64,000 nucleotides of DNA from Pelagomonas calceolata (GCA_918797485.1 CAKKNE010000004.1:3844001-3908000), one strand, 5' to 3'; positions 2,677-61,868 are shown, counted from the first letter of the stretch. Notes: generated by a model not told the origin, from the sequence alone. Numbers and translations are program-made.

Positions 2677-2699
2677 GCTAGCGTCTGTAAGACACTAGC
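2677..2699 (-). promoter_or_regulatory. Bipartite CTAG intergenic motif
   Basis: Reverse complement GCTAGTGTCTTACAGACGCTAGC, about 310 bp upstream of the SpoU gene. Confidence 0.7.
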
Positions 2700-3009
2700 A
2701 AGCGGCAGTGAGAGCGCTGTTTTGGCACGCCTCAAACGCGACACCCGTGCAGTGTTAACGCCGCAAAGTTGTGCCAGGACACACAGCGTACTCTACGCAC
2801 GCGTGCGCGAGAGAACGAGCACTGGCGGCAACCAAGCGCTGCGTTTGGACTCGGTACAACGCAAGGCTCTGCCACAGCAAAGCACACGAAGACGGCAGCA
2901 AGGCATTGGATAGTCGCGCGAACATCAGGACGCAGCAGTGCTGCGTTAAGAGCCAGCACGCGCCTCAACACCTGTGGTGCCGGCACGCAACGAAGTGCAT
3001 CGAACGAAG

Positions 3010-4959
3010 ATGAGCGCACCACAAAGCCCCCAAAGCCCGCACAGTCCGCACAAGTCCAACTGGATGCTCGACCAGGACAGCGGCGGCGACGACGACGACA
3101 AAAATACGATCCGCCTGCGCTACCTCTACCGCGGCGAGCACAAGCGCGACGGCCGCGTCGCGACGATCGCGTGCGAGAACGGCACCATAAAAACAAAGGC
3201 CGTCCTCGTCGCGCTCCGACGGGACAGGTCCGTCGACCTGGACCGCTTCGGCGTCGCGCTCTACGATGTGAAGGAAGAGGCCTGGCGGACGCTGACGGAG
3301 TTGGACGACGAGGTCGCCGTCGAGGGCGAGGCGCGCGCCGAGCTCTACGACACGCTCGAGCAAGAGGCAGATGATGCCGCGGCAGAGGCGGGCTACTTCG
3401 GCATTGGGATAGTCCGGGGCAAGACCGCGGGCAACGCGGGCGTGCTCTGGCGGTCCGCGGCGCAGCTCGGCGCGGCGTTCACGTTCACGGTCGGCGCGCG
3501 CTTCGAGAAGGAGGACGACAAGACGGACGCCATCGCGGCGTGGCGCCGCGTGCCGCAGTTCGCGTACGACGACGTCGCGCAGCTCGTGACGGCGACGCCG
3601 CGCGGCGCCGCCTTGGTCGGCGTCGAGATGGGCGGGCAGGCCCTCGAGACCTTCGCGCACCCGGAGCGCTGCGTGTATGTACTAGGTGCCGAGGACGAGG
3701 GCCTGCCGAAATCGGTAAGACGGGCGTGCCGCCACGTCGTGTCGCTGCCGTCGATTCGTTCGGCGTCGTACAACGTCGCGGTCGCCGGCGCGCTCGTGCT
3801 CTACGACCGGTTCATGAAGAGGAGCCGGCCCGTGCCGCCGCCGCTGCCATTACCAACGACGGTCGACGTCGAAGACGAGGCGGCCGAGCCGGTCTACTTG
3901 CCGATCATCCTCGTGCAGCGCGACTCGGCGACGGCGTCGCGCGTCGACGCGCTGCTGGAGCAGCGCCACGGCGCCGCGGTCGTCCGGAAAGCGACGGACG
4001 GCGATTTGAGCACGGAGGAATTCGCGCGGGCGCGGGCGCGGTTCTCGGTCGCGCGGGCCCACGACGCCGGTGCCGTCGCGTGCAGCATCGCGGCGGACCC
4101 GCTCCTCCAGGGCCACGTCCAGCGCTGCCTCGTGCTCGACCGGCGCGCGGCGGATGTTGCTAAAATCGCGCTCGGCGCGGAGACGTACCGCGTCGTCGCG
4201 CAGCCGGCGGGCCTCGCGACGCGCGTCGTCGACCAACTGCCCGAAAGCGTCGCGCTCGGCACCGCAGACGCGACGCACCTGCTCTGCGTCTGCGATTTCG
4301 GGGGCAAGGGCCTCCTGGCCGGCGTCGCGCCGGCCGCCGCGCGGCCGCGGCCTCCGCCGCGCCGGGAGCCGCGCGGCGCGGCCGTCCTGTCCGCCGCCGC
4401 GTTGATCTTCTTCGACCACGCCGTCCCTCGCGTCGGGGGGGCCTCGTCACGCCGTCGACCACGCAGGCGGGAGCTGGCGCGCCGGGGCCTCGTCGCGCCG
4501 ACGGTCGGGCGCTTCGAAGTCGTCGGGAACGTACCCGGCGCCGCGGACTACCTCCAGGCCTGCGGCCGCGCGCACGAATATTCGGACTCGATCGAGGTGC
4601 TGGTCGCGGACGGTCGGCGCCCGGTGTCCCGTCTTCAACTTCTTGCGACGACGCGACTCGCTTTGCCTCGCGCCGACGACGACGAGCGCGCTGACAAGGC
4701 AACCGCGCGCGCAGGCGACGGGCCCGCCCGCGCCGTCGAGGTGGCGTCGCAGCTGCTCCCCCAGCTGCACGGCGTGTTCGTCTGCGTCGTCGCGCCGCGG
4801 CACCGCGTCCGCGACGCGGACCTCGCCGCGGAGCTGGCCGCCGCGCTCCGCGCGGCGCTGCCGACGACGACGCGCGTGGTCGCGCCGCGATGCATGTGGC
4901 TCCTCGCGAACGCGAAGCTCGAGCGGACGCTACTGTGTCGGGTAAACTTAAAATCATGA
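3010..4959 (+). CDS. SpoU/TrmH-family (SPOUT) RNA methyltransferase with long C-terminal extension
   Basis: Motifs NAGVLWRSAAQLGA, YVLGAEDEGL, SYNVAVAGALVLYDR. Possible in-frame introns 4401..4466 and 4613..4714. Confidence 0.85.
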   Translation: MSAPQSPQSPHSPHKSNWMLDQDSGGDDDDKNTIRLRYLYRGEHKRDGRVATIACENGTIKTKAVLVALRRDRSVDLDRFGVALYDVKEEAWRTLTELDDEVAVEGEARAELYDTLEQEADDAAAEAGYFGIGIVRGKTAGNAGVLWRSAAQLGAAFTFTVGARFEKEDDKTDAIAAWRRVPQFAYDDVAQLVTATPRGAALVGVEMGGQALETFAHPERCVYVLGAEDEGLPKSVRRACRHVVSLPSIRSASYNVAVAGALVLYDRFMKRSRPVPPPLPLPTTVDVEDEAAEPVYLPIILVQRDSATASRVDALLEQRHGAAVVRKATDGDLSTEEFARARARFSVARAHDAGAVACSIAADPLLQGHVQRCLVLDRRAADVAKIALGAETYRVVAQPAGLATRVVDQLPESVALGTADATHLLCVCDFGGKGLLAGVAPAAARPRPPPRREPRGAAVLSAAALIFFDHAVPRVGGASSRRRPRRRELARRGLVAPTVGRFEVVGNVPGAADYLQACGRAHEYSDSIEVLVADGRRPVSRLQLLATTRLALPRADDDERADKATARAGDGPARAVEVASQLLPQLHGVFVCVVAPRHRVRDADLAAELAAALRAALPTTTRVVAPRCMWLLANAKLERTLLCRVNLKS

Positions 4960-5574
4960 ATCCTCGTTAGGAGTGCGCGGCTGGACGGCGGCGCCGTCGT
5001 TCAGCCGCATCGAGAGCACGCCCTCGGGGTAGTCGGCCATGTGCGTATCCACGAACGCCCGCAGTTTTAAATCTTCATCGTCGCGCGGCGGGTTCAGCCA
5101 GCCTCTAGATTCAAGCTCCGCGCGCGACCGCGGGGCTGGCGTTTTCTCGGATGCAAGGGCGGGCGCCTCGACGAACGCGCGCCGCGCCTCATCCAACCGA
5201 TCGCACTCGGCGCGCATCTCGCCGAAGGCCTTGGTCAGGTAATTGCCGGCCTTGCGCAACCTCGAAGTAGCGAGCGCGTCGATCGTCGGGCACTGGTAGA
5301 TCGTGCCGTCCAAGACATAAAAGTACGCCTCCACATCAAACCCGTCGCCCGTGGCCTTCTTGCGTCTTTTAGAAATGGCGAGGCAGCGCGGGTTCCGCGA
5401 CCGCTCGAGCGCGAACTCGAGGCCCTCGCCCGTTTCGTAGAACGGCGACCGCTCGAAGTAGGCCAAGACATTGTCCGCGCGCGCGCCGCCAACCTGCTGC
5501 AGCCAGACGGGGTCGAGGAAGCAAGTTGACGGTGTTACCGTCGTCTGGTCGATGGCTGCTGGTGGGGCGTCCAT
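4954..5574 (-). CDS. MED6: Mediator subunit 6
   Basis: FLDPVWL...DNVLAYFERSPFY...YFYVLDGTIYQCPTI match the Med6 pattern. ATG at 5574. Confidence 0.85.
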   Translation of the reverse strand: MDAPPAAIDQTTVTPSTCFLDPVWLQQVGGARADNVLAYFERSPFYETGEGLEFALERSRNPRCLAISKRRKKATGDGFDVEAYFYVLDGTIYQCPTIDALATSRLRKAGNYLTKAFGEMRAECDRLDEARRAFVEAPALASEKTPAPRSRAELESRGWLNPPRDDEDLKLRAFVDTHMADYPEGVLSMRLNDGAAVQPRTPNEDS

Positions 5575-5720
5575 TTTTTCTATTGTGGTGGCGGCAGAGT
5601 TGCGCAAGTGCCGTTACGCGTTGTAATCGCAGCGATGCGATGCTCGAGGGAGTCGTTCTGCAGTTATTACAGCTCTACGAGCTTGTATGGTTGCAAACAC
5701 ACCAAATAGCCCAGGGGCTT

Positions 5721-5744
5721 GCTAGTGTCTTACACGACGCTAGC
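5721..5744 (+). promoter_or_regulatory. Bipartite CTAG intergenic motif
   Basis: GCTAGTGTCTTACACGACGCTAGC between divergent genes. Confidence 0.75.
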
Positions 5745-5841
5745 CTCCGTGGCACTTCGGCGGGTAACTACGCACGACGCTCCACGAGCCTCGGGGCCGA
5801 TTCGGAGGACGCCGCGGTAATTCGGTCAGGCGCCATTGAAC

Positions 5842-6831
5842 ATGAAACTGTTCATCTCCCTCGCCCTCACTCTCGCGCCGCGCGCGACGGCCCGCTTGGC
5901 GAGGTACGCGCGGAACTCGACGAGTCACCCCGGCCGCTGTGACCGGAACGTGTTTGAACGGGAGTTCTACCTCCTCGCCAAGGGACTCGAGCCCACGTCG
6001 GACAAGGTGACGGCCCATTCGTATGAGACGATGTACGGCACGTTCGTATATCCACTGAAATTCGCGGCCCATACGCCCAGAATCTTAGAGATCGGCCTCG
6101 GTTGTAACATGGATTACGGCCCGGGGGCGTCGGTGAAGGCGCGAAGCGGCGTCGGTCTTCGACTCGAGGTCCCCCCAGGAGATCCGTTGTACCCCCGCAG
6201 ATATGGCGCCAGCTCCTGCCCTACGCCGAGCTCTGGGAGGCTGAATACGACGCCGCGTGCGTCGAAAAAGCGCGCGCGAAGGGCCAGCTCGAGGGTATCA
6301 AGACCGTCACGGGCGACCAGGGCGACTTCGCCGTCCTCAAGCGCTGGGCCGAGGAGATCGGCGGCGAGTTGGACGTCATCATCGACGACGGCGGGCACCG
6401 GTGTGGAAATCAAAGCTTCATTTCGAGACGCGTTACATTCGACTCATAAACCGTCCACAGGCGGACACAAGAACTCCCAGATCGGGCACTCGTTCGACGT
6501 CCTCTGGCCGCTCGTCCGCAACGGTGGGGTTTACGTTATCGAGGACCTCCAGGTCGGCCGGTTCAAGAGTTACGGCGGGGAAAAAATTAACTACGAGGAC
6601 ACGAAGGGCCGGGGCGTCATGGCCGACAAAATCAAGGACTGGATCGAACAGCTCGTAACGATTCCCCGCGTATTCAAGCACACGAAGGGCCGTGGATTCG
6701 AGCACAAGATCCCGGACGACGTCTCCTTCGTCTACTGCCAACTGGAGGCCTGCGTCATCGGCAAGCGCAATCGCCACGTCGAGGGTAGTCGTCCGGGTCT
6801 CCCAGGGCACGACTTCCCGGGGCGGCGCTGA
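5842..6831 (+). CDS. Class I SAM-dependent O-methyltransferase (MycE-like motifs) with signal peptide
   Basis: Exons 5842..6138, 6201..6390 and 6461..6831 give TSDKVTAHSY...LEIGLGCNMDYGPGASVKIWR...TGDQGD...DVIIDDGGHKNSQI...GGVYVIEDL. Both introns are GC-AG. Confidence 0.82.
   Translation: MKLFISLALTLAPRATARLARYARNSTSHPGRCDRNVFEREFYLLAKGLEPTSDKVTAHSYETMYGTFVYPLKFAAHTPRILEIGLGCNMDYGPGASVKARSGVGLRLEVPPGDPLYPRRYGASSCPTPSSGRLNTTPRASKKRARRASSRVSRPSRATRATSPSSSAGPRRSAASWTSSSTTAGTGVEIKASFRDALHSTHKPSTGGHKNSQIGHSFDVLWPLVRNGGVYVIEDLQVGRFKSYGGEKINYEDTKGRGVMADKIKDWIEQLVTIPRVFKHTKGRGFEHKIPDDVSFVYCQLEACVIGKRNRHVEGSRPGLPGHDFPGRR
6399..6460 (+). mobile_element. Short introner element; GC-AG intron 6391..6460
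   Basis: TSD GCGGGCAC (6391-6398) / GCGGACAC (6461-6468). Left TIR CGGTGTGGAAATCAA, right end TCCACAG. Splicing restores the DDGGH motif. Confidence 0.85.
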
Positions 6832-6882
6832 AGAGTAACAACACTAGTACAAAAAACAGCAATTACAAACAAAAGGGATCAA

Positions 6883-8994
6883 TCAAGCGTCCTCGGCCAC
6901 CGCTCGCAGCATCGCCGCGAAGTAGGCCGGCTCGAGGTGGTCGTCCAGGGCGCCGCCCGACGCGAGCGCGGACAGCATCTTGAGCTCGGCCTCGACGTAT
7001 TTAGAGTCGAGCCCGACGGACCCGAGCAATTCGGACGACGAGCTCCCCTGGATCGTATTGACGGACTTTTGGGTCAGCCGCGTCGCCGCGTCCAAAGCGC
7101 TCTGGACATCGAAGGGCTTGACGGATCGCGCCTCGCCCAATGCGTCGTCCAACAACGTGGCGAGGGGGCTCCCGGGCGGCGCCGGCCGCGTCACGACGCC
7201 GCTCAAACCGCCGTCGCCCTTCTTCAGGGGGCACTCTCCTTCATTCTCGCCCTCGACCCAGATTGTAGCGTTGGGCGACACCAAGATCGTGCTCCCGCCG
7301 TGGGCGTAGGAGAAGCCCCGCGGCAACCGAGCGACGATGTCCTGGCCGTTCACTAATCTGGAATGGGTCGGGACGGCCACGTCGAGTTGTGAGGCGAAGG
7401 CCGCGTCGCCGACGCGCGGCGCGCCGAGCGTCACGAGGTTGATAGCTGAAAATTTCGGGGCGTCCGCGACAGCAGCAACAGTAGACGTGCCGAGGAACCA
7501 GGGTTTTGACCGTGGTTTCCGCACGGGCAACGACCTAGTAGCATCTATACCATACGCCACGTCGAAGGCAAATAAAGTCGCCAGCGCGCCGCCGAGCGAG
7601 TGGCCCGTCACTAACAACTCCCAGTCCTCGGGTCTATCGTCGCAGGCTCTCAAAACGAGCTGCTTCAGGCGCATGGCGATGGAATCCAGCGCCCCGCGGA
7701 ACCCGGCGTGCACCGACGGGTCGCCCGCGGCCAGCGGCACGCTATCATCATAATCATCTCGCTCCATTTCAGCCTCGCGCGCCCAGGGCGTCATCAACGC
7801 CGACGCGTCCGTGACCACGTCGCGCGGTTCCGACGTGCCCCGGAAGCTCACCATTAACTTTTTTGATTGCGCGTCCCTCCAGAGCCCCGCCTGCGTGCCC
7901 GTTTTCGCGTGGTCCACGAAGCATAGCGCTTCATAGGCCGAGGCGTCCGCTATTTCACTCCAGTCGACACCGGCTTCCGGTGAGGCGCCCCTCACGACGT
8001 CCTGGCGCTCGTGCAATAAACGCGTGTCCGCGTCGAGATTTATGACATCGTCATCAGTATCAAAAGCCGCATACTTCAAGTCGAGCTCCAGACGGCCTTT
8101 TTTTTCATCATTAAGCATGTTGGCTCTTATACCGGCCGCGGCCATGGCCGCGAGAGCGACCCCTCCTGTCGCCAAACCGGCCGCCGCGCCGACGACCGCG
8201 CCCCCGACCAAGGCGCCGCCATCGAAGGCGATCTTGTCCTCGGCGTCCACGGCCAAATCGACGGTCCACCTTCTTTCCCCACCGGACAGCAACGCCCTTG
8301 ATAAAGGAATTTCGCCGACGCCGAGCAATCGGTCGGCGCTGGCCACGTCCTCGTCAAACACGCGAATAGCCAGCGCCGCCCGCTTCGGGTCCGCCACGTA
8401 CAAACAGTGGTAGTCCTCGGCGGGCCACTCCACGGGGTCCGGCGCGCGCCAGACCGTCTCTGTTCGAGCGACATCAGTGGCGTTCGACGCTCGGGCTCGC
8501 TGCGACCTCTTGGAAACCTTCTCGACGACCGCCAACCGACAGTAGGCGTCGACGCCCGCGCCCGACAGGGCGAGCTCCTCGAGCTTCAGGCCGCCCGTCG
8601 ACGGAGACTTTAAACCGGTGGCGCGGGCGACGCGCACTAACGCGGCCCCCGCGTAGCAGCTCCGGATGAAACTGGTCGAGCGGAACGCGACGTCGCAGCC
8701 GTCCGCGCCGCGCTCCCAGCGCGCGCCCGCCGGATCATTATAACACTCGAAGGCGAAGCCCGCGCAGAGCGCCGCCGTTTTCAACGAAAAGCTCGTGCGC
8801 GTCGGCGCGTCGATTCGTTTTCGCAGCGCGGCGTTTTCTCTTCTCAATCTTCCGCACTCTTCCTCCAGTTCCTCCCGCGTGAGGGCTGCTAAATCTGCGT
8901 CTGGCGTGGCGTGCTGTTTTGGCCTCAGGGCTCGCGGTGGTGGTACCAGAAATGCGTTCGCTGCGGCGAGGGCAACGAGCAGGACGCGACTCAT
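6883..8994 (-). CDS. Class 3 lipase with C2-like domain, predicted plastid-targeted
   Basis: Leader ...AANAFLV. Motifs VSFRGTS, VHAGF, VTGHSLGGALA, TLGAPRVGD, DIVARLP. Confidence 0.9.
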   Translation of the reverse strand: MSRVLLVALAAANAFLVPPPRALRPKQHATPDADLAALTREELEEECGRLRRENAALRKRIDAPTRTSFSLKTAALCAGFAFECYNDPAGARWERGADGCDVAFRSTSFIRSCYAGAALVRVARATGLKSPSTGGLKLEELALSGAGVDAYCRLAVVEKVSKRSQRARASNATDVARTETVWRAPDPVEWPAEDYHCLYVADPKRAALAIRVFDEDVASADRLLGVGEIPLSRALLSGGERRWTVDLAVDAEDKIAFDGGALVGGAVVGAAAGLATGGVALAAMAAAGIRANMLNDEKKGRLELDLKYAAFDTDDDVINLDADTRLLHERQDVVRGASPEAGVDWSEIADASAYEALCFVDHAKTGTQAGLWRDAQSKKLMVSFRGTSEPRDVVTDASALMTPWAREAEMERDDYDDSVPLAAGDPSVHAGFRGALDSIAMRLKQLVLRACDDRPEDWELLVTGHSLGGALATLFAFDVAYGIDATRSLPVRKPRSKPWFLGTSTVAAVADAPKFSAINLVTLGAPRVGDAAFASQLDVAVPTHSRLVNGQDIVARLPRGFSYAHGGSTILVSPNATIWVEGENEGECPLKKGDGGLSGVVTRPAPPGSPLATLLDDALGEARSVKPFDVQSALDAATRLTQKSVNTIQGSSSSELLGSVGLDSKYVEAELKMLSALASGGALDDHLEPAYFAAMLRAVAEDA

Positions 8995-9049
8995 GATTAC
9001 AAGCGCCAGGTGTATCAGTATGGCCTGTGTCGCGGCTCAGAGCTTGCTT

Positions 9050-9073
9050 GCTAGTGTCTCACATGCCGCTAGC
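9050..9073 (+). promoter_or_regulatory. Bipartite CTAG intergenic motif
   Basis: GCTAGTGTCTCACATGCCGCTAGC between divergent genes. Confidence 0.75.
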
Positions 9074-9305
9074 AAGCAGTGCGAGCCTCAAAGTGAGCCT
9101 GTACGAGCCGCATTACTCACCAATCAGCCCTCTGCGCACGCCGTTGCATCGGTGCTTCACGCTCAGCCGCCTCGTGCTCGTTTCGCTGCGCTAAAAGCAC
9201 CGCTGCACACGCTGCAGGCTGCATCGCTAGACGCCAGAGATCAACCGCTAGACGCCACCGACGAGCCACAGCAACCGATCGACGCGCCACAGCACCCGAT
9301 CAACC

Positions 9306-10457
9306 ATGGAGGTCGACGACCAAATACGAGTGCGCTTCGTCACGAAAACTCAAACGATAGCCGTGCCCGACACGGCGCTCTCGCTCGCGACGGCGTGCGG
9401 CCGCGCGCAGCTCGGCGACGTCGTCAACAAATTACGAGGTGGTTCAAATCTAGACCTCGACTTCCTCTGGGATGAGAAGCTCGTGCAGGGGTCGCTCGCG
9501 CAGCACGCCGCGCGGCACGGACTGAGTACTGAGAACGTCGCGGAGCTCGAATATTTTGAACGGCGCCCCGAGCCCGAGCATGCTGGTTCTACGACCTGCG
9601 GCGACGACTGGGTCGGTTGTCTCAGTGGAGGCGCGAGCGTGCTGGCGGGCTCCTACGACGGCCGGCTCTTCTGGGCGCGCGACGGCAGCGTCGCGGCGAC
9701 GGCGCACGACGGCGCCGTCACGTGCTTGGCATCGTCGTCCTCCTCCATACTATCGGGCGGCAAGGACGCCGCCGTCAAGGCCTGGCGCCTGTCCGGAGGC
9801 ACTATAAAACTTGTGAGTGAGGGCGAGCACGCGCACGCCGTCGCGAGCTGCTCGTTAAATGAAGCGAGGGCCTTCACGGGCGACTGGGGCGGCCTCGTCT
9901 TCGCCTGGAGCCTGCCGCCGGTTGCCGAGGAACCCGCGACGAAGCGCCAGAAGACGGACGCGTGGGCGCCTTCATCAACAACCAAGGCCCACGCCCAGGT
10001 CGTCTCCGGCATGTGCCTCGCAGATCAACAACTCTGGACGTGCTCCTGGGACCACACTACAAAAATCTGGGACGCGGCGACGCTCGAGGAGCGGTTCAGC
10101 GGGAGCTGCTCCGTCGCGCTGAACTGCATTGACGTCCTTAATGAGACCGCAGCGACGGGCGCGCACGACGGCGCTATACTATTATGGGACGCGCGCTGCC
10201 GCGCGACACAAAAATCATTAAGGGGCCACAGCCACCAGAGCGTGTCGAGCGTGGCGTGGCTCTCCGACGCGCGGCTCGTCTCGGCGGGCCACGACGGCCG
10301 GCTCTGCGTCTGGGACGTGAGGGGAGCGGCGACGGAGCCCGTCAGCGTGCTGAGTTGTGCGTTGAACAAGTGCCTCTGCGTCGCGGCCGGCGGCGGCGCT
10401 CTCTTCGCGGGCGGCGACGCGCCCCAGGTGCACCGGTTCTCAGCGCCGGGCGCCTAA
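9306..10457 (+). CDS. WDR12: Ribosome biogenesis protein WDR12/Ytm1 (NLE domain + WD40)
   Basis: N-terminal QIRVRFVTK...LDFL...LSTENVAELEY, then DDWV, GSYDG, SWDHTTKIWD and further WD repeats. Confidence 0.85.
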   Translation: MEVDDQIRVRFVTKTQTIAVPDTALSLATACGRAQLGDVVNKLRGGSNLDLDFLWDEKLVQGSLAQHAARHGLSTENVAELEYFERRPEPEHAGSTTCGDDWVGCLSGGASVLAGSYDGRLFWARDGSVAATAHDGAVTCLASSSSSILSGGKDAAVKAWRLSGGTIKLVSEGEHAHAVASCSLNEARAFTGDWGGLVFAWSLPPVAEEPATKRQKTDAWAPSSTTKAHAQVVSGMCLADQQLWTCSWDHTTKIWDAATLEERFSGSCSVALNCIDVLNETAATGAHDGAILLWDARCRATQKSLRGHSHQSVSSVAWLSDARLVSAGHDGRLCVWDVRGAATEPVSVLSCALNKCLCVAAGGGALFAGGDAPQVHRFSAPGA

Positions 10458-10626
10458 GTATTGGACCTGTCTTTTTGCGCGTCCCGCGTCCCGGGCCGCT
10501 GACGCGTCTAGCCTGCGGTACCTTTGCGACTCGACTCGGACTCGCGAGCGCGGTCGACAGCACCTGCTCGTTCGAGTTGTGACTAATTTTCCCCACCGGC
10601 ACGCCATCGCCGCGAATCTAAAAAAA

Positions 10627-11628
10627 CTAGACTTTAGGCGCCGGCGGCAGGTCCGCGGGGCTCGACCGGATCGCCGCCCGTCTGGCGCTGAGCTCATCTT
10701 CCAGACCCTCGACCATGACCGCCAGCGCCGCGTCCACCGAATAGGCCGAGCCCCGCGGTCTCCACAATTGCACGACGACGCCGAGCGTCAGCGTCAGCGC
10801 CGCGGTCATGAGCGCGAACATCGCCGCCTCGACCCGCAGCGCGCCCGCACCCACCGTCGTCGCCGCGCCCGCCGACAGCAGGGGGAACGCGCACACTTCC
10901 AAGATGCCCAGCAAAAATAAGAGGGCGAAGTGCAATGGTGGTAATTTGCGCTGCATCGCGCCGAGCCGCTCGCCCCGCGCGCGCCGCAGCCACCGTACCG
11001 TATCGTAGATGGCGCCGGGCGTGCCGACAGACGTCTGCCACATGATCGCCTCGAGCGGGTCGTCGCGCGGCCGCGTCGACAGCAGGACAGCTGGGGATAA
11101 ATCAGCGCGCTTCAGGTCGCGGTCGACGTAGCGCTGCACGTCGTCCAAAACGCCGGCGTAGGACGGCCGCCCCTGGCAGACCAGCGTCGCCTGCTCTAAT
11201 AAAGCTTTGGCGACGGAGACCTCCTCGAACAAAGCCATGTAGACCATGACCTGCTGGTTGTAGCAGAACGCGTACGTGTTGCCTATCAATAACGAGAAGA
11301 GGATGCCGATAACTGACAAAAAGTTCTGGATGAACTGGCCCTGGTCGCCCGACAGCACGGCGAGCGTCGCGACGCCGAACGCGGAGCGCATGCCGCGGCA
11401 GAGCGCCGGGAACGCCACGAGACTGATGGCGCCGACGGCGAGCGATGGTACCAATAGCACGACGGACGTTTTTATCAGTCGGTCGCGTGCGAGCTTGTCG
11501 GCGTCGCTTGGTGGCGCGATGGCTGTTGCATGGCGCCTCGGCAGTGCTAGTTTGAGGCGGGTGGGTGGTGGTCTGAAGGCGGCGGCTGCTTGCAGCAGCA
11601 GTGCGAGTGCGAGGCGTCGGCGAGGCAT
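10627..11628 (-). CDS. Predicted plastid-targeted multi-pass membrane protein (DUF4239-like)
   Basis: Leader ...QAAAAFRP, hydrophobic helices, IGILFSLLIGNTY...EVS and RRARGERL...LPPLH pattern. Confidence 0.65.
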   Translation of the reverse strand: MPRRRLALALLLQAAAAFRPPPTRLKLALPRRHATAIAPPSDADKLARDRLIKTSVVLLVPSLAVGAISLVAFPALCRGMRSAFGVATLAVLSGDQGQFIQNFLSVIGILFSLLIGNTYAFCYNQQVMVYMALFEEVSVAKALLEQATLVCQGRPSYAGVLDDVQRYVDRDLKRADLSPAVLLSTRPRDDPLEAIMWQTSVGTPGAIYDTVRWLRRARGERLGAMQRKLPPLHFALLFLLGILEVCAFPLLSAGAATTVGAGALRVEAAMFALMTAALTLTLGVVVQLWRPRGSAYSVDAALAVMVEGLEDELSARRAAIRSSPADLPPAPKV

Positions 11629-11691
11629 GTTTTTCGCTTGCTCCGCTGCTGTGTGCGAGCTCGCGCACCGGGCTGAAACCCAGCATAATTG

Positions 11692-11713
11692 CCTAGCGGA
11701 GTGAGATACTAGC
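11692..11713 (-). promoter_or_regulatory. Bipartite CTAG intergenic motif (variant)
   Basis: Reverse complement GCTAGTATCTCACTCCGCTAGG between divergent genes. Confidence 0.6.
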
Positions 11714-11954
11714 GCTAACAGTGAGAGATCAATGAGGCGTCTCTACGCGTGATTATAGATCTTCTCAGGAGCAATCGACGCAAGAGTGCGGCGTGAAAAT
11801 CACACAACCACCGGCGTATTTGCACAAAACGTGGCGTAAAAAGGACTACACCTGAGCCAAAATGTCCCTCAGTATCACAGCCGCATTGACGGGCTAGCAC
11901 CGGCGTCAGAACCGCGCCGCGTCCCGCGGCCCCAACAAGCAGTATATCCGATCG

Positions 11955-13233
11955 ATGAAAAAACGATCAAGGTTTTACGCGCCGCGCAGCGACGCCGTCG
12001 GTTAGCGTCGTCAGACGACGTCTCGCAACCACCGCCTTGACTGCTCGCGGGCGCCGGGCTGAAACCGCGCCCTGAGACCGGCGGTCGTCGCGGAACGCCC
12101 GCGGAAACGCTGGAAATTCTCTCACCACCTCACCACGCCGCCGCCAGAAACGCCAGGATCTCCTCACCGCGCCAAACCCCTCGCAGAGTTCGTCGCCCAG
12201 GCGCTCTTCGTCTTCACGTGCACGGGCGCGGCGTGCGGTCAGGCGACGCCGTTCTCCTCGACGAACCCCTTCGACGGCTCCAAGGGCGCCAACTCCGCCG
12301 TCGGCATCATCGACGACGGCTCCTTCGTGCCCGAGGACCTGCCGGTCCCCTTCGTCCAGTCCATCGCAATGACCTTCGGCTTCACGATCACTGCCCTCGC
12401 CTACGCCATGGGCTCGAAGTCGGGCGCCCAGATCAACGGCGCGGTGACCTGGTCCGCCGCGGCGTCTCGAACTCAACTGCGCCGCCTCGATGGCGTCACG
12501 TTGTGACCGTCGGTCGCGTCCTCCACGCCATCGACGCGACGCGACTCACTCCATGCGCGCAGGGGCCTAGCCGTCGCCGGCGAGCTCTCGCCCATCCAGG
12601 CCGTCGCGAACATCTTCATGCAGTGCTGGGGCTCGGTCCTCGGCTCCGGCTTATTATCCCTCGTCTACCGCAAGTCCTCGGACCGCACGAACGGCTTGGG
12701 GTCCAACCGCGTCGGCCCGGGCTTCTCGCCGCGCCAGGCGTTCCTCGGCGAGGCCATCATGGTCTTCATTTTGATGTATGTGGTCCTCGAGACGGCGGTG
12801 AACAAGAAGAACAAGGCCAACGCGGCGCTCGCGCCGGTCGCCATCGGATTTGCGGTGTACATCGGCCACACGATGCTCATCCCCGTCGACGGCTGCTCGC
12901 TCAACCCGACGCGCTCCTTCGGCCCGGCCCTCGTCTCGTACATCCAGAACCGCGGCCCGAACTACTTCCGCGACTTCTGGTGCACGGGCGGTGTCCGAAA
13001 CTGTATTACGACGGGCGGGGCGCCGCGTCGATGGCCTGATACGGCCGTCGACAGCACGCGTCCGCGCCGACGCCGACGTCGTAAATCCACGCAGGGTCTT
13101 CGTCATCGGCCCCGTCACGGGCGCCACGGTCGCGGCGGCCTACTACAAGGTGATCAATGCCATGCAGGACAAGGAGGCCGAGAACGAGCCGGCCGCGGAC
13201 CGCGCCGAAGACGTCAAGCCTGTCGAGGCCTAG
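11955..13233 (+). CDS. Aquaporin / major intrinsic protein (first exon uncertain)
   Basis: EFVAQALFVF...SGAQINGAVTW|GLAVAGE...LAPVAIGFAV...DGCSLNPTRSFGPA...DFW|VFVIGP. GT-AG introns 12452..12562 and 12980..13094 restore the frame. Putative first intron 12001..12186. Confidence 0.88.
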
Positions 13234-13434
13234 GCGTCCGTGGACCCCCCGCGCTCCCTTCGCGGTCGAGCGCTCCCTTACACCCCCCTTGGGCACAGTA
13301 GCAGCTGTGCCACCATCTACTCTGACTAACGTTCACAAAACTTTACTCTCGGGCCAAACCGCCACGCCATCGGGCGCGACACACGCGCACACATCGACGC
13401 TTGCGCCGGTGTCGCGACACGTACACACGACGAG

Positions 13435-14301
13435 CTAGACCTCGACGCTCGCGCCGGCCGGCGCGGGCGGCGGCGAGGGATGCCTCGTCCGCAGACAGCT
13501 CCCGGCGCGTTGCCGCAACGAGCGCACGGCGTTATCGAGGCCGAGGAGCTTGACGAAAAAGCCGACGACGTGGCGAACAACGGAGACGATGTCGCCCGCG
13601 CCCGACGCCGCGCGGACCTCGTACGCGTCGCCTGACAACACGTAGCCCGGGAGCTGCGAACACCGCGCGTCGACGGCGGCGGCGGCGCTTGCCGAGGGCA
13701 GCGCCACCGCGAGCCAGCCAGTCACCTCCAGACTTCCCACAACAAGCCCCCCCAGGTGCCCCACGAACGAGACGTTCGGAATAACGACCTGCATCGCGAC
13801 CAGCAACGCCCAGGGGTAGAGCCGCGCCGGCACCTCGATCACGCCGAAGACGCTCCGCCGGCCGCCGCCCCGCGCGGCCTCGCACGCCGCCAACGCAAAA
13901 ATGACGCCCGAGAAGCCGAGCGCGTGCTGCCGCGCGAAGGACTCGTCGCGCGTCAGAAATGTCAGCAGGAGCGACAGCGCGCACGAGACAAGGCCGGCGA
14001 GCGGCACGGCCCAGAGCGTGATCGAGAGGAGCCGGACCGTGCCCGCAGACCGCTCCAGCGCACCGCTGATGGCCGCCGTCGAGGCCACGTTCATCCCAAG
14101 ATGCAAAAGGCCGCCATGGAGGAACGACGACGTGACGATGCGGTAGAATTGGCCCTCCGCGACGGTCGACGCACTGATCGTAAATCGGCGCGTCGACGCC
14201 GCGTCGAGGCACAGGAATTGGAAGACGGCTGCGGCCAAGAGCAGTGCGCAGATCGATGCGGTGCCTAGGCCGAGCCTCGCGGCCGCATGGATGTAACCCA
14301 T
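13435..14301 (-). CDS. Rhomboid protease (RHBDD1/RBL-like)
   Basis: YRIVTSSFLHGGLLHLGMN, catalytic GFSG and VGHLGG. Confidence 0.9.
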   Translation of the reverse strand: MGYIHAAARLGLGTASICALLLAAAVFQFLCLDAASTRRFTISASTVAEGQFYRIVTSSFLHGGLLHLGMNVASTAAISGALERSAGTVRLLSITLWAVPLAGLVSCALSLLLTFLTRDESFARQHALGFSGVIFALAACEAARGGGRRSVFGVIEVPARLYPWALLVAMQVVIPNVSFVGHLGGLVVGSLEVTGWLAVALPSASAAAAVDARCSQLPGYVLSGDAYEVRAASGAGDIVSVVRHVVGFFVKLLGLDNAVRSLRQRAGSCLRTRHPSPPPAPAGASVEV

Positions 14302-14373
14302 GACTGGAGGAGGTGCTGATTTGAGCTATAGCTGCCGTTTAAGCGGGCTGCCATGCCAAAAAAGGCATGGCTT

Positions 14374-14396
14374 CCTAGTGTGTTACGGACGCTAGC
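14374..14396 (+). promoter_or_regulatory. Bipartite CTAG intergenic motif
   Basis: CCTAGTGTGTTACGGACGCTAGC between divergent genes. Confidence 0.72.
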
Positions 14397-14592
14397 TGCG
14401 GCTTGTGCCGGCTTTCCACACCTTGGGTGGCCTTATCGATTCTTTCTCGGTCCTGGCGACGAAGCAGTTTACTCACACAACTGATCTGCACGCGCGTGCC
14501 ACTCGCTAGCCGCAGCGCTTCATCACACGCCTAGTGCGCCACCAGGGTCACAGCCTCTCGCTGTGCCTCTCGCTGTGCCTACGTCCGCAGCG

Positions 14593-15357
14593 ATGCCCCG
14601 CAAGGCCGCAAAACGCGCGCGCACGGTCGTAGAGCGCGACTGGCGCGCCACGCTGTTCGTCTGGCGCGGCGAGCTCGAAATCGGCGGGTCCCCGGACACC
14701 GGTCCGCAGATCTCGTGGCGGGGCGCGTGGCTCGGCGCTGATGACGACACTATGCCGTCGGACGCCGCCCTGAAAGCGAGCGAGAACACGTTCGAACTCA
14801 AAACGGAGCCGTTCGATCACGAACAGATCCAAGAAAAGGCCAACGCGACCCTCGTGGGGACGGAATTCGAGGGCGAAGAATGCGGCGGAACCGAGATTGT
14901 GTTCGAAGCCATCGACATGATCCTTGGTGGTATGGACGAAGAGGATCCCGAGGGCCGCAAGGCCTTCTTCCAGCTGGATGGCTTGTTCGAGATGCAATTT
15001 GGGGGCTCGTACAAGCTTGACAACGGCTCTGGCCTGGAGGACACCTCGGACGACACGCACCGCTGGGAGGTGCGCTCGTGGCCGAAGGCGGCTCCGGGAG
15101 AGGTCGAGTGCGCGACTCATGCCGCCGTCGCAGCCGTCGGCACGACGCCCTTCGGTCGCTTCGTAAGCCTCGGCGCCATCGATGGCAGCACGATGACATT
15201 GGCGCGCCGCTACATTGCCGACGACGACCCGCGCGCGGCCTGGGCGTCGCCCGCGGCCGTGCTCGATGCATGCCTAGATGACGCGCAGCTAGAAGAAGAA
15301 GAAGAGCTAGCCCTCGCGGACATCCCGGCCAAGCTCCCGTGGAAGGTGGACGCGTGA
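14593..15357 (+). CDS. Hypothetical protein, tandem paralog A
   Basis: Coding-like ORF sharing conserved blocks with 15536..16417. Confidence 0.8.
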   Translation: MPRKAAKRARTVVERDWRATLFVWRGELEIGGSPDTGPQISWRGAWLGADDDTMPSDAALKASENTFELKTEPFDHEQIQEKANATLVGTEFEGEECGGTEIVFEAIDMILGGMDEEDPEGRKAFFQLDGLFEMQFGGSYKLDNGSGLEDTSDDTHRWEVRSWPKAAPGEVECATHAAVAAVGTTPFGRFVSLGAIDGSTMTLARRYIADDDPRAAWASPAAVLDACLDDAQLEEEEELALADIPAKLPWKVDA

Positions 15358-15535
15358 CCTAAGCGCTTGTGTTTTCCCTAGGAGCTCTAATTCTAGGACC
15401 ATCAGATGATTTTCGCCTCAACGCGCGGGTTTACACGTTTGCCGCGCTTACACTGCTTGCCGCGCTCTGAGTGCCAAAGCGCAAGCGCTCGTCCTGTGAA
15501 CCATTCAATTGTCCCTCAAAAGAACGATCCGAGCG

Positions 15536-16417
15536 ATGGCGGAGCCGAAGCTGTCGATCAAACAGATGAAGGAATCGATACGGGAGGCGGGCTTCCCCAC
15601 CGCGGACCTGCTTGAGCGGGCCGACATCGACGCGCGCTACGCCGAAGCCGTGGCGCGCCTGGCCGAAGCCGAGCAGCTCAAGACCGGAGAAAGGCTCGCC
15701 AAGCGCCCGCGCACCGAGCCCGCCGAGCGCGACTGGCGCGCGACGCTCTTCGTGTGGCGCGGCGAGGTCGAGGCCGACCCGAGCATTCAAGTGAAGCACG
15801 CCGACTGCGGCGCTCCCACTCCGTCGATCACGTGGCAGGGCGCCTGGCTCGGCACCGATGACGGGACGATGCCGACGGAAGCGGCCTTGCAAGCGAGCCC
15901 CAATACGTTCAAGCTCAAGGTCAGCAAGTTCGACGAGGAGAAGATACGCGAAGGGAGTTCCTGGGTCGGGGAGCCTCGCAGGAACAAAAACGATTACTTA
16001 GGGACTGCTGAGCTTATGGACTATATCATGATGACTTCCTTTGGAACCGACCCGGACGAGGACGACGAAGATTGGGGCAAGCCGGACCGTCTGGGTGAGA
16101 TGAAGTTCGACAAAGGCTCGTACAAGCTCGACACCGGCAACGGCCTCGAGGACGTCAAGGACGTCGAGCACCGCTGGGAGGTGCGCATGCCCGCCGTGGC
16201 CGCCGTGGGCACGACGCCCTTCGGGCGCTTCGTCAGCCTCGGCGTCATCGAAAGCGGCGGTATGGGGCACATGACCTTGGCGCGCCGCTACATCGCCGAC
16301 GACGACCCGCGCGCGGCCTGGGCGTCGCCCGCGGCAGTGCTCGATGCCTTGCTCGGCGAGGGACCGCTCGCCCTCGCGGACATCCCGGCCAAGCTCCCGT
16401 GGAAAGTGGACGCGTGA
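15536..16417 (+). CDS. Hypothetical protein, tandem paralog B
   Basis: Shares ERDWRATLFVWRGE, GSYKLD, HRWEVR, GTTPFGRFVSLG, MTLARRYIADDDPRAAWASP and LADIPAKLPWKVDA with paralog A. Confidence 0.8.
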   Translation: MAEPKLSIKQMKESIREAGFPTADLLERADIDARYAEAVARLAEAEQLKTGERLAKRPRTEPAERDWRATLFVWRGEVEADPSIQVKHADCGAPTPSITWQGAWLGTDDGTMPTEAALQASPNTFKLKVSKFDEEKIREGSSWVGEPRRNKNDYLGTAELMDYIMMTSFGTDPDEDDEDWGKPDRLGEMKFDKGSYKLDTGNGLEDVKDVEHRWEVRMPAVAAVGTTPFGRFVSLGVIESGGMGHMTLARRYIADDDPRAAWASPAAVLDALLGEGPLALADIPAKLPWKVDA

Positions 16418-16506
16418 GCTCGGCCGGACCCCCAAGCCATAAGATACTGTGTCACTCGGTTAAGTTAAATACCAACAAGAACAACACCCCTCGTGCGTGG
16501 GAAGTG

Positions 16507-18579: not shown

Positions 18580-19022
18580 GGTTCCGTCCTGTGGTGGCTG
18601 TGATGTGTAAGGGGTGGCTGTGATTTGTGGGCTGCCGGTCCGCGTCGAGGGCTGCTGGGTGCGGGCCGCCGGTCCACGTCGAAGGCTGTTTTGGGAGCGG
18701 GTCGTGGGCAACGGGGGCTGCCCCGCCGACGCGAAATCCCGCCAGCAAAAATCCACAGGCGAAATTCGAAAAAACCCGCATAAGTTGCCGCGCGCGGGTT
18801 TCTGTGCGCGGCCTCAGACCCCTACGATGGCGGTCGGATGTGTTGTCTCGAGGCCTCCCGACGGCTCGCCGTGCCGCGCGCCCCGCACGCTATGGCTGAA
18901 ATTCTTGCATGCACTCGCGCGCCACTCGGAACCACAAGCGCGTGGGCGGTGCCGTAGGGGCTCGTCTACGACACTTCTTGCATCGATCTCGCGCGCGGCG
19001 GGGCTGCCTTGGGGGTTCATCC

Positions 19023-20108: not shown

Positions 20109-20121
20109 TTAGCAGTATGAA

Positions 20122-21039: not shown

Positions 21040-21063
21040 GCTAGTGTCTTACATGCCGCTAGC
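21040..21063 (+). promoter_or_regulatory. Bipartite CTAG intergenic motif
   Basis: GCTAGTGTCTTACATGCCGCTAGC between divergent genes. Confidence 0.75.
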
Positions 21064-24768: not shown

Positions 24769-24791
24769 GCTAGTGTCTTACTGCCGCTAGC
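24769..24791 (+). promoter_or_regulatory. Bipartite CTAG intergenic motif
   Basis: GCTAGTGTCTTACTGCCGCTAGC between divergent genes. Confidence 0.75.
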
Positions 24792-24827
24792 TGTGGAAAT
24801 GCCAAAAAGCGCTCGGAAAACGCATAA

Positions 24828-27921: not shown

Positions 27922-27945
27922 GCTAGTGTGTTACAGGTCGCTAGC
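27922..27945 (+). promoter_or_regulatory. Bipartite CTAG intergenic motif
   Basis: GCTAGTGTGTTACAGGTCGCTAGC between divergent genes. Confidence 0.75.
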
Positions 27946-29408: not shown

Positions 29409-29802
29409 GTTTAAGGGGGCTATTTGTGATCTCTCATCTGCGTAGAAGGCACGACGCGGCGATGGCGTCTGATCCTACCGATCGCGTACAGATAGCGCGG
29501 GTAATTCGCGCGTTGCGAAAGGGTATCGATTTCTCGCTCGGCCCAGTCTCTACGTTAGTCTATGCGATTATCCGTTGTGCGTCTAGGACCCCCGATGCTA
29601 GTATGTCTGTAGTCTAGGTCAAGTTCCCAGGCAGATCGACGCGCCACCTGGCTCTGTGCGCGCACTGGCCTCACGCGTTCGATCCGCGGCTGCCAGAAAG
29701 CTCTGCGCATCCCATTTAGCCGTCCACGAGCGCGTGACGCGCGCGGCGCCTGTGTGGGCTCATACCGCCCAGGAAAGCTCTGCTGGACGCGCCGCGTGCA
29801 CG

Positions 29803-31836: not shown

Positions 31837-31860
31837 GCTAGCGCCATGTAAGGCACTAGG
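31837..31860 (-). promoter_or_regulatory. Bipartite CTAG intergenic motif
   Basis: Reverse complement CCTAGTGCCTTACATGGCGCTAGC between divergent genes. Confidence 0.7.
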
Positions 31861-35231: not shown

Positions 35232-35484
35232 AGATGAAGCCGCTAAAAAAACCGGTTTAGTGTTGAGACACACTAGCTCGATCAAAATTTTGGACAGTCG
35301 AGGCGTAGCTAGTGCTGCTTAAGGCTGCATTGCTGCAAGTGCCACCCACGCGAGCGCTACGCATACATACATACGCAGCAAATCGCGCTCCAACCCAGGA
35401 CGCTGCGGCTGTTTGCATTGCGATAGCTATATCAGGCCTAATCAGGCTGCCCGGCACGGCGTCGAGGATCGTGCGCAACCAAAA

Positions 35485-37565: not shown

Positions 37566-37588
37566 GCTAGCGTAATCGACGTACTAGC
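37566..37588 (-). promoter_or_regulatory. Bipartite CTAG intergenic motif (variant core)
   Basis: Reverse complement GCTAGTACGTCGATTACGCTAGC, with the same ends and spacing as the other copies. Confidence 0.55.
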
Positions 37589-44013: not shown

Positions 44014-44037
44014 GCTAGTGTGTTACAAGCCGCTAGC
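44014..44037 (+). promoter_or_regulatory. Bipartite CTAG intergenic motif
   Basis: GCTAGTGTGTTACAAGCCGCTAGC between divergent genes. Confidence 0.75.
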
Positions 44038-44115
44038 TAACTTTTTCATCGTCCCTCTGGCGCGCGCGCCGCCTCGTAAATTTTATAGGGGCGTCCCCTG
44101 CCAGTGCTCGCGAAT

Positions 44116-44859: not shown

Positions 44860-44892
44860 TTTTGTAAGAATCGTTCATTAACAAAACACAAG

Positions 44893-46695: not shown

Positions 46696-46841
46696 GAAAG
46701 TGCTCTTTGTGTGCGCTTGCTGGCACAGGTCGCCAGTTGTGGCGCGGTGTGTAGGCGATCAATTATACACAGCGAAGCCCTCAGACAGCCGTTTAGAGGC
46801 TGATGCGATGAGCACTGCAACCAAGTCAAAAACGCGAGTTA

Positions 46842-46863
46842 ACTAGCGTACTGACACACTAGT
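46842..46863 (-). promoter_or_regulatory. Bipartite CTAG intergenic motif (variant)
   Basis: Reverse complement ACTAGTGTGTCAGTACGCTAGT between divergent genes. Confidence 0.6.
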
Positions 46864-47027
46864 AATCACACAACTTTGTGGAAATCCGCCACATAACGCG
46901 CCCGTGGTGCCTCAAAATAGGCTCGGTCGCTGCCTTCAGCACCCCTTCTCCATCACACCTCCCGTCCGTGCCGTGCGCGCGCGCGAGAGACAGCATAAGC
47001 ACAGCAGCAGAGAGGTGGCCGGGCAGC

Positions 47028-48269: not shown

Positions 48270-48279
48270 ACACACTTGA

Positions 48280-49295: not shown

Positions 49296-49696
49296 TGTTG
49301 ACTGTCGCTGCCCCGTCGACGCGGGCAGCCGATTCTGGTAGCCCTTTGGCACTGCAAATTGGCAGCCAGTTGGTCTCGGTGCCTCATGTCAAACTTCGCC
49401 GCGGAGGCGGCGCACGAAGCCTGCGTGAGCCTCTGTATGAGTCACTGGAGTGGTGAAGGAGGGCAGGAGATGTCCAGGGACGTTTCGACAGACGCAAAAC
49501 CCGCCACTCCAAAAACGCGCCGTTCGACCGCGCGACGCTCCGTACGCGCAGCGCCGACCATCAGAGAGGTTCTCACGCCGTCTGTACGGCAGAAATAGAC
49601 CGCGCACTCGCCTCGCTGCGACTGGCCCGGCTCCAAACGGTGCCGGACACGCTGTGAACAGATTAGCGCTTAGCGTCTGTTACAAGCTCGTACACC

Positions 49697-52759: not shown

Positions 52760-52799
52760 TCCTTCCCCATTCCCTCCCCCCGACGTAACAAACACACTC

Positions 52800-53881: not shown

Positions 53882-54252
53882 GGTGCTCTGTGTTTGCGGC
53901 TGCCCCCTGCTGTCCAACCTTCTGCGCTTTGTGTGCGGCCTCCGGGCAGCTCTTCGTGGGCGCCGGGTGCGTCCCTGCGTCTCCGGAGGCGCGTGGGGGC
54001 CGCTTTACGGCTGCCCCAGCGCCTGGCCGCGGCGCTCGAGCCGCCGAACCCGCGCTGTCGACGTCGCCCCCAGGGCAATGTTCTAACGCCTACCCGAGTC
54101 TTAACGTACGCCTCTGAGTATTCTAGTTTCGTGCGGGTGCTGGCAAGGCTTGATGAGGTGTGTGTTTTTGCACGCTGCTCTCCCACGCACACGCGTAACA
54201 ATCGTTGCCAGTGACCATTGCAAAAGACTCACACCAGTAGTGCTGCTGCACG

Positions 54253-55221: not shown

Positions 55222-55245
55222 TTTGTAAACTTAAAATGTAACATC

Positions 55246-55887
55246 TCACTCACACAGTACGATACCCCTCATACCGTCATCTCTAATTTTCGCCCTCGGT
55301 CGTTCGCCGGTGCCGCGGAGCACGCCGTCGTCTAAACAACGCGTGCGCGGAAAGTGGCGCCGCAACACAATGCGCGCTGTTTCAGGCGCGCCGCTCACCG
55401 CAAGCACGCAGCCGCATTCTAGAAACGTCGCGGCCGCGTCCGCGAGCTTGGCGAGGATCGCGAGGCGATGCAGCGCCGCGGCATCCCAGGCGCCCTCCGT
55501 CGTAGAAAGAGCCGCGACGTCGTCGATTATTATCAGCGTCGGCCGCGCGTGGTCGCCCGGCCAGGACTGGCAGTTGTTCAAGATCCACGCAACGTCGGCG
55601 AGGCCCGCGACGTACTTTAAACGGACGCGGTCAAGCACTGGGCTGTCGGCGTGCCCGCGTAAAGTTGTAGTAGGCGGCGCGTCGGCCTCGTCGCGCAGCG
55701 GCGGCGGCGGCGCCGCGGCGTCGTCGCGCCGCCGGCAGAGCAGCAGCGGCGCCGCGGCGGCGTCGCGTTCCGCCGCGCGCCGCGCGAGGGCGAAGGCGAC
55801 GCCGCTCGTCATTCGCGGCGAGCCGCCGACAACAGCGAGGCGGGCTGTCGAGCAGTCCTTTCGGAGCGGTTCGTCGAGATAATCCAT
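55246..55887 (-). CDS. SWSAP1-like RecA-fold protein (putative)
   Basis: LDRVRLKY...PTLIIIDD resembles SWSAP1. Confidence 0.5.
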   Translation of the reverse strand: MDYLDEPLRKDCSTARLAVVGGSPRMTSGVAFALARRAAERDAAAAPLLLCRRRDDAAAPPPPLRDEADAPPTTTLRGHADSPVLDRVRLKYVAGLADVAWILNNCQSWPGDHARPTLIIIDDVAALSTTEGAWDAAALHRLAILAKLADAAATFLECGCVLAVSGAPETARIVLRRHFPRTRCLDDGVLRGTGERPRAKIRDDGMRGIVLCE

Positions 55888-56111
55888 TGATTTGTGCGGT
55901 CAAGGAGCCAACCTTATTTGTGCTGTCAAGCACCCAACCTTGGTCTGTGGCCTCTGGGGCACAGTGGCCTTGCTGCGCTGTAGGCGTCCTTTAGTCGCTT
56001 GGGTGATTCGCGAGGCGCTCTATTTCAAGCGCGGACAAGCGTGGAAGCTCAAAATCCTCCGCGCGCAAGGGGGGTTAAGTGTTTATCCCCCATGCCGCGC
56101 GCGCAGCAGTT

Positions 56112-56135
56112 GCTAGCGGTCTGTAACACACTAGC
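56112..56135 (-). promoter_or_regulatory. Bipartite CTAG intergenic motif
   Basis: Reverse complement GCTAGTGTGTTACAGACCGCTAGC, 225 bp upstream of the gene starting at 55887. Confidence 0.75.
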
Positions 56136-56145
56136 AAGCGCCCCA

Positions 56146-56200
56146 AAATCCATCATTCGTCCTAGCACCGTAACAATAACTAATTAAATCCATCATTCGT
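56146..56200. repeat. 15-bp direct repeat flanking the junction motif
   Basis: AAATCCATCATTCGT at 56146..56160 and 56186..56200. Confidence 0.75.
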
Positions 56201-56320
56201 TACCGTATCGCCGAAATTCTCCTTCAGGGGACTCCGTGCGTACCTACTATTATTATGATGAGCCTGAGGCCTCCCCCCGCGCGGGGCGCTACTAGGGACT
56301 ACTAGTAAGACAAATAAAAC

Positions 56321-61603: not shown

Positions 61604-61846
61604 TGTGGTAGCCTCCGGCGCCACGCACGCGTCCTGCGCGTTTGTTTGTTAAGCTGTTGGACCGCGAGGCAGCCCCGCGTGCGTGCCGTGCCCAAGCGGG
61701 CAGCCCTATCGCGCGCAGCGCTGGCTGTTGGCCCAAGCCGCTGCGAATTTGGCGCTAGGGTGTCGCTCCCACGGATGCCTCGCCAGGGCTCGCTGACGAC
61801 GGGTCCGTGCCGGGCTCGTAACGGTGCTTCGGAGTCGTATGACGGA

Positions 61847-61868
61847 GCTAGCGGCGTGAGACACTAGC
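61847..61868 (-). promoter_or_regulatory. Bipartite CTAG intergenic motif
   Basis: Reverse complement GCTAGTGTCTCACGCCGCTAGC between divergent genes. Confidence 0.75.

Follow-up and report, generated by a model that had tools for sequence, protein, structure and literature searches.

A two-part CTAG motif between gene starts in a compact eukaryotic genome as a likely site of a general promoter factor

A bipartite motif of 22-24 bp, containing two inverted CTAG half-sites, recurs between gene starts throughout the window, i.e. the whole 64-kb stretch of DNA analysed here, which represents a compact, intron-poor eukaryotic genome. We consider it likely that the motif is a dispersed double-stranded element between gene starts, providing the site of a general, orientation-independent promoter factor as its putative binder. 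Judged from conservation and position, the element is functional. It is apparently undescribed: no description was found in the literature searched, although one might exist in subscription journals, most of which lay outside that search. Neither the Pelagomonas genome preprint (10.1101/2021.10.25.465678) nor the corresponding paper uses the words motif, promoter or CTAG in its main text. The GC content and gene density of the window fit the values that the preprint gives for Pelagomonas calceolata, so that a Pelagomonas-like pelagophyte is the inferred source.

Pattern search of the window yields 13 strong copies with the consensus (TT)GCTAGTGTSTYAC-N2-4-CGCTAGC. The element is composed of two inverted half-sites, GCTAGTG and GCTAGCG, the left one being extended by TSTYAC. 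Thirteen of the 20 core positions are invariant across the 13 copies, and the substitutions concentrate at the same few positions in all of them. Each of the two bases preceding the left half is T in 11 of 13 copies, the spacer between the halves is 4 bp long in seven copies, 3 bp in three and 2 bp in three, and a G stands two bases ahead of the right half in 10 of 13. CTAG pairs 16-18 bp apart occur 18 times in the window, as against at most three times for any other spacing up to 100 bp. The position weight matrix (PWM) scores of the copies, 23.1-40.3 bits, are inflated because the same 13 copies built the PWM; in the control, 20 order-3 Markov shuffles of the window, the best score was 12.0 and none exceeded 14. 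The 11 main copies of the preliminary description, as well as its variants at 11692 and 46842, were all recovered at their positions as one pattern. Its three weaker copies do lie in 5' spacers, but their scores are indistinguishable from chance (Table 1).

Copies are found in either orientation (seven plus, six minus), and their flanks are unrelated, as had been noted, with a mean identity between copies of 25-26% and a maximum of 0.39. Target-site duplications (TSDs) of 3-10 bp were found at 0 of 13 copies under five boundary settings, and old ones would have decayed. Neither an element body nor terminal inverted repeats (TIRs) common to the 13 copies were found in the flanks beyond the motif, and Rfam and ARAGORN gave no match over the window. 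The GC content falls to 0.51-0.55 around the motif, compared with 63.8% for the window overall. Two known elements were rejected as identities of the motif. The RFX X-box has inverted GYAAC half-sites with a short variable spacer, and TTGCTAG resembles part of some X-boxes, but the consensus contains no GYAAC half-site. Helitron 3' ends share a subterminal hairpin and an element body before a single terminal CTAG; the motif has two CTAG and its copies share no body.

Table 1. Copies of the CTAG motif and AAACCCG sites in intergenic spacers (window coordinates unless another locus is named)
Feature	Position	Strand	Context
Motif copy	2677..2699	-	tandem spacer EF-P(+) / SpoU methylase(+); SpoU RNA contig start 2714
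Motif copy	5721..5744	+	divergent Med6(-) / unnamed gene(+); Med6 RNA contig end 5698
Motif copy	9050..9073	+	divergent lipase(-) / WDR12(+); RNA contigs end 9034, start 9079; kept in L002
Weaker copy, 23 bits	11692..11713	-	divergent bestrophin-like(-) / aquaporin(+); RNA contig end 11655, read pile 11836
Motif copy	14374..14396	+	divergent rhomboid(-) / unnamed gene(+); RNA contigs end 14366, start 14416; piles 14319, 14336, 14432
Motif copy	21040..21063	+	divergent spacer
Motif copy	24769..24791	+	divergent Vma12(-) / unnamed gene(+)
Motif copy	27922..27945	+	divergent HMGL-like/LeuA-domain gene(-) / unnamed gene(+)
Motif copy	31837..31860	-	divergent spacer
Motif copy	44014..44037	+	divergent LON-domain(-) / MYND(+)
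Motif copy	46842..46863	-	divergent GTPase(-) / cyclophilin(+)
Motif copy	56112..56135	-	tandem spacer, both neighbours minus-strand genes
Motif copy	61847..61868	-	divergent cNMP-domain gene(-) / Got1(+)
Possible degenerate copy	37566..37588	-	tandem spacer; 9.3 bits, within shuffle range
Doubtful, left half only	35256..35277	-	tandem spacer; <8 bits
Doubtful, CTAG pair at 16 bp	29597..29618	+	tandem spacer; <8 bits
AAACCCG	15426..15432	-	motif-less tandem spacer
Two inverted AAACCCG	18772..18801 (starts 18772, 18795)		motif-less divergent spacer
AAACCCG	49497..49503	+	motif-less divergent spacer
AAACCCG	63758..63764	+	motif-less 5' spacer, window end
AAACCCG(TC) sites	L003:1149, 3512, 6114, 8523; L004:9376, 10403		

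The gene models of the window are approximate and comprise 42 genes (52.7 kb genic) with 17 divergent, 7 tandem and 17 convergent spacers. All 13 copies are located in 5' spacers, one copy per spacer, occupying 11 of the 17 divergent, two of the seven tandem and none of the 17 convergent spacers. None was found inside the 52.7 kb of genes, nor any non-promoter copy in the 64-kb window. The PWM scan with enrichment by spacer class, proposed in the preliminary description and run here within the window, separates divergent from convergent spacers (Fisher p=9e-5). Convergent spacers are short, however, and when intergenic length is taken into account their lack of copies reaches only p=0.037; the difference between divergent and tandem spacers is not significant (p=0.18). 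Thus the earlier claims of one copy per spacer, always 5' of a gene and mostly between divergent pairs, are borne out, whereas the claim that the motif marks most upstream or divergent spacers holds for the divergent class (65%) and not for the tandem class. The earlier range of 35-310 bp from the ATG needs correction, as the distances remeasured on the window gene models are 56-487 bp. Since 6 of 17 divergent spacers have no motif, it is not required for divergent transcription. The genes beside the motif are functionally unrelated by annotation, in agreement with the earlier remark. Beyond GC-rich k-mers, no other word is shared among the motif-less or the motif-bearing window spacers.

RNA was mapped on positions 2400-15000, a region that covers five of the 13 copies, and only at motif-bearing promoters. 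The sources were two stranded raw-read runs from one sample and two contig sets, X5 and X1, the latter two being only guessed to be RNA on the grounds that they follow genes and skip introns. Transcripts run outward from the motif on both sides, whatever its orientation. In seven of eight measurable neighbour genes, the furthest 5' end, which is the furthest extent of a contig rather than a mapped start site, lies 6-37 bp outside the motif edge: SpoU 15, Med6 23, lipase 16, WDR12 6, bestrophin-like 37, rhomboid 8, and the gene right of the 14374 copy 20 bp. The exception is aquaporin, at 123 bp and seen as a read pile only; the gene right of the 5721 copy was left out, its RNA coverage being too weak to measure. 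The implied 5' UTRs range from 27 to 296 nt, and therefore the starts track the motif, not the ATG. Upon random placement of the motif within its spacer, at least seven of eight ends fell within 40 bp in 17 of 1,000,000 trials, this limit having been picked after the data were seen. Among the eight measurable genes, the half facing the gene is the left one in five and the right one in three. The two fully measured divergent gaps between furthest 5' ends are 44 and 49 bp, with the motif inside. Raw-read piles are located further out, at 36-59 bp except for aquaporin at 123 bp, and the distance between the main starts may thus be about 100 bp. Sequencing runs of a single cultured organism, as well as metatranscriptomes from seawater, also contain the window sequence.

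Orthologous loci were obtained from a metagenome scan with WDR12 alignment, the name WDR12 coming from the protein atlas. The protein identity to the window is 90% for L002, 77% for L003 and L004, and 46% for L005; L003 and L004 represent one organism (99.96% identical over 7.6 kb), and the WD40 proteins L006 and L007, at 22-25% identity, were left out as orthologues. At the lipase/WDR12 promoter of L002 the motif is kept in the same orientation with 23 of 26 bases identical, and the three changes fall at the degenerate Y and in the spacer only. The 60-bp flanks of this copy align no better than shuffles (35 against a shuffle mean of 31 and maximum of 37 for one flank, 30 against 28.8 and 36 for the other). 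Given the identity of 0.79 at four-fold-degenerate sites, the chance of 20 unchanged positions is about 0.009, indicating that the motif is under purifying selection relative to its flanks at this one orthologous site.

The motif is absent from the 14.9 kb of L003/L004 syntenic with the window, and from the four promoters therein whose window orthologues carry it; the sequence examined in L005 contains no CTAG whatever. The element thus occurs at 90% but not at 77% or 46% protein identity, a pattern that could reflect either gain or loss. The earlier proposal of a lineage-wide element must be narrowed, since the syntenic 77% relative has AAACCCG instead of the motif at the same promoters. Two differences in the surrounding sequence were also observed. 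An inverted repeat, GCCAG-CT-CTGGC, stands just left of the motif position in L002 (1897-1909) and L003 (3460-3472) and is lost in the window, and the gene at 5842-6831, between Med6 and lipase, is missing from syntenic L003. A promoter element is found upstream of Med6 in both the window species and the L003 species.

The heptamer AAACCCG was first noticed on reading the promoters of one relative (L003/L004) and put to the test there only after that. It occurs once in each of the four promoters orthologous to motif-bearing window promoters, and overall in six of seven 5' spacers, while the remaining 12.5 kb contain none. Ranked by the number of spacers containing it, AAACCCG comes first among the 7-mers of L003/L004; the count of six was reached in 0 of 1000 shuffles, and a rough correction for all 7-mers gives 0.014. 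At lipase/WDR12, within a stretch that aligns poorly, the AAACCCG of the relative is placed beside the motif's right half. In the window, AAACCCG is present in 4 of 12 motif-less versus 0 of 13 motif-bearing 5' spacers (p=0.039), and also six times in genes. L005 has neither element. AAACCCG is thus a candidate second general promoter element, and its distribution suggests that it and the CTAG motif exclude and replace each other at promoters; a lineage-wide swap of promoter elements is possible. AAACCCG is similar to TTACCCG, the site of yeast Reb1.

We propose that a factor bound to the motif would fix transcription starts on both sides. Two DNA-reading modules, present either as a dimer or as two domains connected by a flexible linker, may read the inverted GCTAGYG half-sites, of which the left is extended by TSTYAC, and the 2-4 bp slack of the spacer could be absorbed between the modules. 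By analogy with yeast general regulatory factors, the bound factor might keep the short spacer open so that polymerase II loads outward on either side. In this way one site could serve two unrelated genes in a very compact genome. The motif and AAACCCG may have replaced one another at orthologous promoters, in either direction, as the single relative suggests. The proposal of a bidirectional promoter element or general-factor site, already made in the preliminary description, is supported by the 5' ends hugging the motif on both sides and by the conservation at the orthologous promoter.

The motif shares several properties with the sites of general regulatory factors: it is found at many unrelated promoters, in noncoding DNA, near starts (five copies, by contig extents), free in orientation and under selection (one site). 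Yeast general regulatory factor sites have 6-13 bases with fixed spacing, whereas the motif has about 20 constrained bases and a variable spacer; this length is long for such a site and counts against our reading. The motif also differs from the yeast sites in lying within tens of bases of both starts, and it has no sequence kinship to Abf1 or Cbf1 sites. Yeast Abf1, Reb1 and Cbf1 likewise use one sequence-specific site at many unrelated promoters. PMC2897762 reports that the sites used by conserved promoters differ between species, and also a Cbf1-to-Reb1 'mediated replacement', which parallels the CTAG motif and AAACCCG here.

Among two-part promoter motifs restricted to a lineage, the one that comes closest is m1m2 of C. 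elegans (10.1101/2022.01.21.477252), which derives from the MITEs CERP2 and CELE2, is bound by HIM-17 and, like the CTAG motif, occupies a large share of promoters and is undescribed elsewhere. In that case there are thousands of non-promoter copies and recognisable MITE bodies, whereas the copies in the 64-kb window all lie in 5' spacers with unrelated flanks; unlike those of m1m2, the genes concerned are not of one tissue or function class. The oomycete INR, FPR and DPEP elements are also lineage-restricted motifs in TATA-less stramenopile promoters. By their description in PMC3599244, they overlap or follow the start, DPEP mostly in forward orientation, whereas the CTAG motif lies upstream of both starts in either orientation.

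Other explanations of the motif assign it a different role at the same position. It could be a basal core-promoter element in which each CTAG half-site substitutes for a TATA box and directs one pre-initiation complex outward. It counts against such a role that a basal element would hardly be expected to disappear between relatives that share 77% protein identity. The short distances of 44 and 49 bp between divergent furthest 5' ends and the presentation of CRCTAG on both strands toward the start would agree with it, as would the lack of TATA boxes in Phytophthora promoters (PMC3599244). However, the orientation is free and the distances scatter (6-37 bp for contigs; 36-59 and 123 bp for piles) with no single offset, these ends being contig extents rather than mapped starts, and tandem spacers serving one gene keep both halves. 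We therefore regard a basal element as unlikely. An element that occupies the open gap separating transcription units as a boundary, roadblock or replication origin, but does not drive initiation, is rather more doubtful, as are the origin and boundary options of the preliminary description. Although transcripts end just short of the motif on both sides, and the tandem copy at 2677 is only 78 bp from the upstream stop codon, the motif is always 5' of a gene and is missing from all 17 convergent spacers, the very places in which a roadblock would be needed most. Moreover, one copy per 4.9 kb is dense for replication origins.

It is very unlikely that the motif is a neutral remnant of a promoter-targeting transposon family, namely terminal inverted repeats that have collapsed, or the footprint of an excision, without any function today. 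Its imperfect palindrome, with a stem of up to 10 bp in the 2677 copy, its absence from the 77% relative and the difficulty of building 20 fixed bases by point mutation at many loci would suit such a remnant. Against it stand the lack of TSDs and the flank identity of 25%, the presence of exactly one copy in each occupied spacer, the retention of the motif in L002 while its flanks decay, the recurrence of substitutions at the same few positions, and the lack of any transposase in the 59 ORFs scanned in the window. Least probable of all is a structural role as a DNA hairpin, cruciform or short RNA stem. The GCTAGYG arms can pair, with predicted energies of -0.6 to -7.1 kcal/mol, but the pairing is mostly weak (about -3 kcal/mol), and the invariant T/G pair becomes a C/A mismatch on the opposite strand. 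The outer pair is changed in four window copies, with one change compensated and three mismatched; the other stem positions are invariant and so uninformative on covariation. In addition, the loop is conserved as much as the stem, the motif is outside the transcripts, and there is no Rfam match.

With a general promoter factor preferred, the origin of its site needs explaining, since 20 bases are too many to arise easily by point mutation. The site may have been seeded by a mobile element, may have grown out of a shorter one, or may be ancestral and lost in the 77% relative; a transposon origin followed by co-option fits the promoter-factor explanation. A more specific scenario, which we put forward only tentatively and hold to be doubtful, is that since the split from the 77% syntenic relative the 20-base element spread through about half of the promoters, having probably been seeded by a mobile element that has since eroded, and took over the positions of an older AAACCCG factor site. 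If true, this would mean that close relatives differ by a rewriting of their housekeeping promoter grammar across the whole genome. In the literature searched, no description was apparent of the promoter grammar of pelagophyte-like picoalgae, which abound in the open ocean. As a mark of two starts simultaneously, the 24-bp element can serve annotation as a predictor of gene starts, and it is a candidate for a minimal bidirectional promoter in transgenes. The exchange of a general promoter factor and its many sites between close species also becomes a testable question, as the two states here are long, distinct and readable at orthologous promoters.

A pattern scan of prokaryote genomes gave 19 matches, seven of which are in marine contigs whose ends bear eukaryote-type genes (by Pfam, UAA transporter, mitochondrial-carrier-like, DEAD helicase and HAD-ankyrin) or a GC shift. 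We read these ends as probably mis-joined algal DNA. The seven matches correspond to six distinct loci, located by sequence pattern and not by position; five of the six lie 126-197 bp 5' of a gene, and one is not callable. Two further variant copies in eukaryote-type segments are also 5' of genes. The alga-like contig ends occur in marine bacterial and archaeal bins (L008, L009, L014, L017, L018, L019 and L025), which look like chimeric reference assemblies; L018, a bacterium, and L025, an archaeon, contain the same 765-bp segment at 95% identity.

The other 12 prokaryote matches were attributed to chance, being scattered, several inside ORFs, and agreeing at no more than three of five extra consensus positions. 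A cyanobacterial repeat of about 47 bp with the same 20-base core (L011:185, L012:3490, L015:8131), found just past a TnpB gene in L012 and past a D-Ala-D-Ala carboxypeptidase gene in L011 and L015, was taken as a chance look-alike. A TnpB origin was rejected, as an IS605/TnpB element appears to end, judged by its end motif, about 20 bp short of one of the three cyanobacterial matches. Matches in viral contigs (one strict, two relaxed) were likewise assigned to chance: the relaxed ones are inside ORFs of contigs with 43-50% GC, and the strict one is in apparently coding sequence, judged by eye, of a 43% GC contig.

Several minor features of the window were also observed. RNA joints and loose ends link positions 6414, 10593-10615, 11080, 12517-12545 and ~1870-1950 via a short shared repeat, which sits in an intron of the aquaporin gene, with a similar stretch in an apparent EF-P intron; these repeats might form an introner-like family. 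A 294-nt skip at 11891-12186, in the 5' region of aquaporin, has the support of 31 reads as well as contigs; its ends are given as GG..CA but can shift by one base, and it could represent a GC-AG intron of the non-canonical type. About 40% of the reads at 12874-12900 and 13354 deviate at positions 12885 and 12900 and show loose ends, which may indicate a second allele or a paralogue of the aquaporin gene. The adjacent plus-strand genes at 14585-15357 and 15536-16417 have no Pfam match and both contain 'ERDWRAT'; both match L003:8684-9433 by BLAST, where one copy is seen in the part covered, and we take the pair to be a tandem duplicate.
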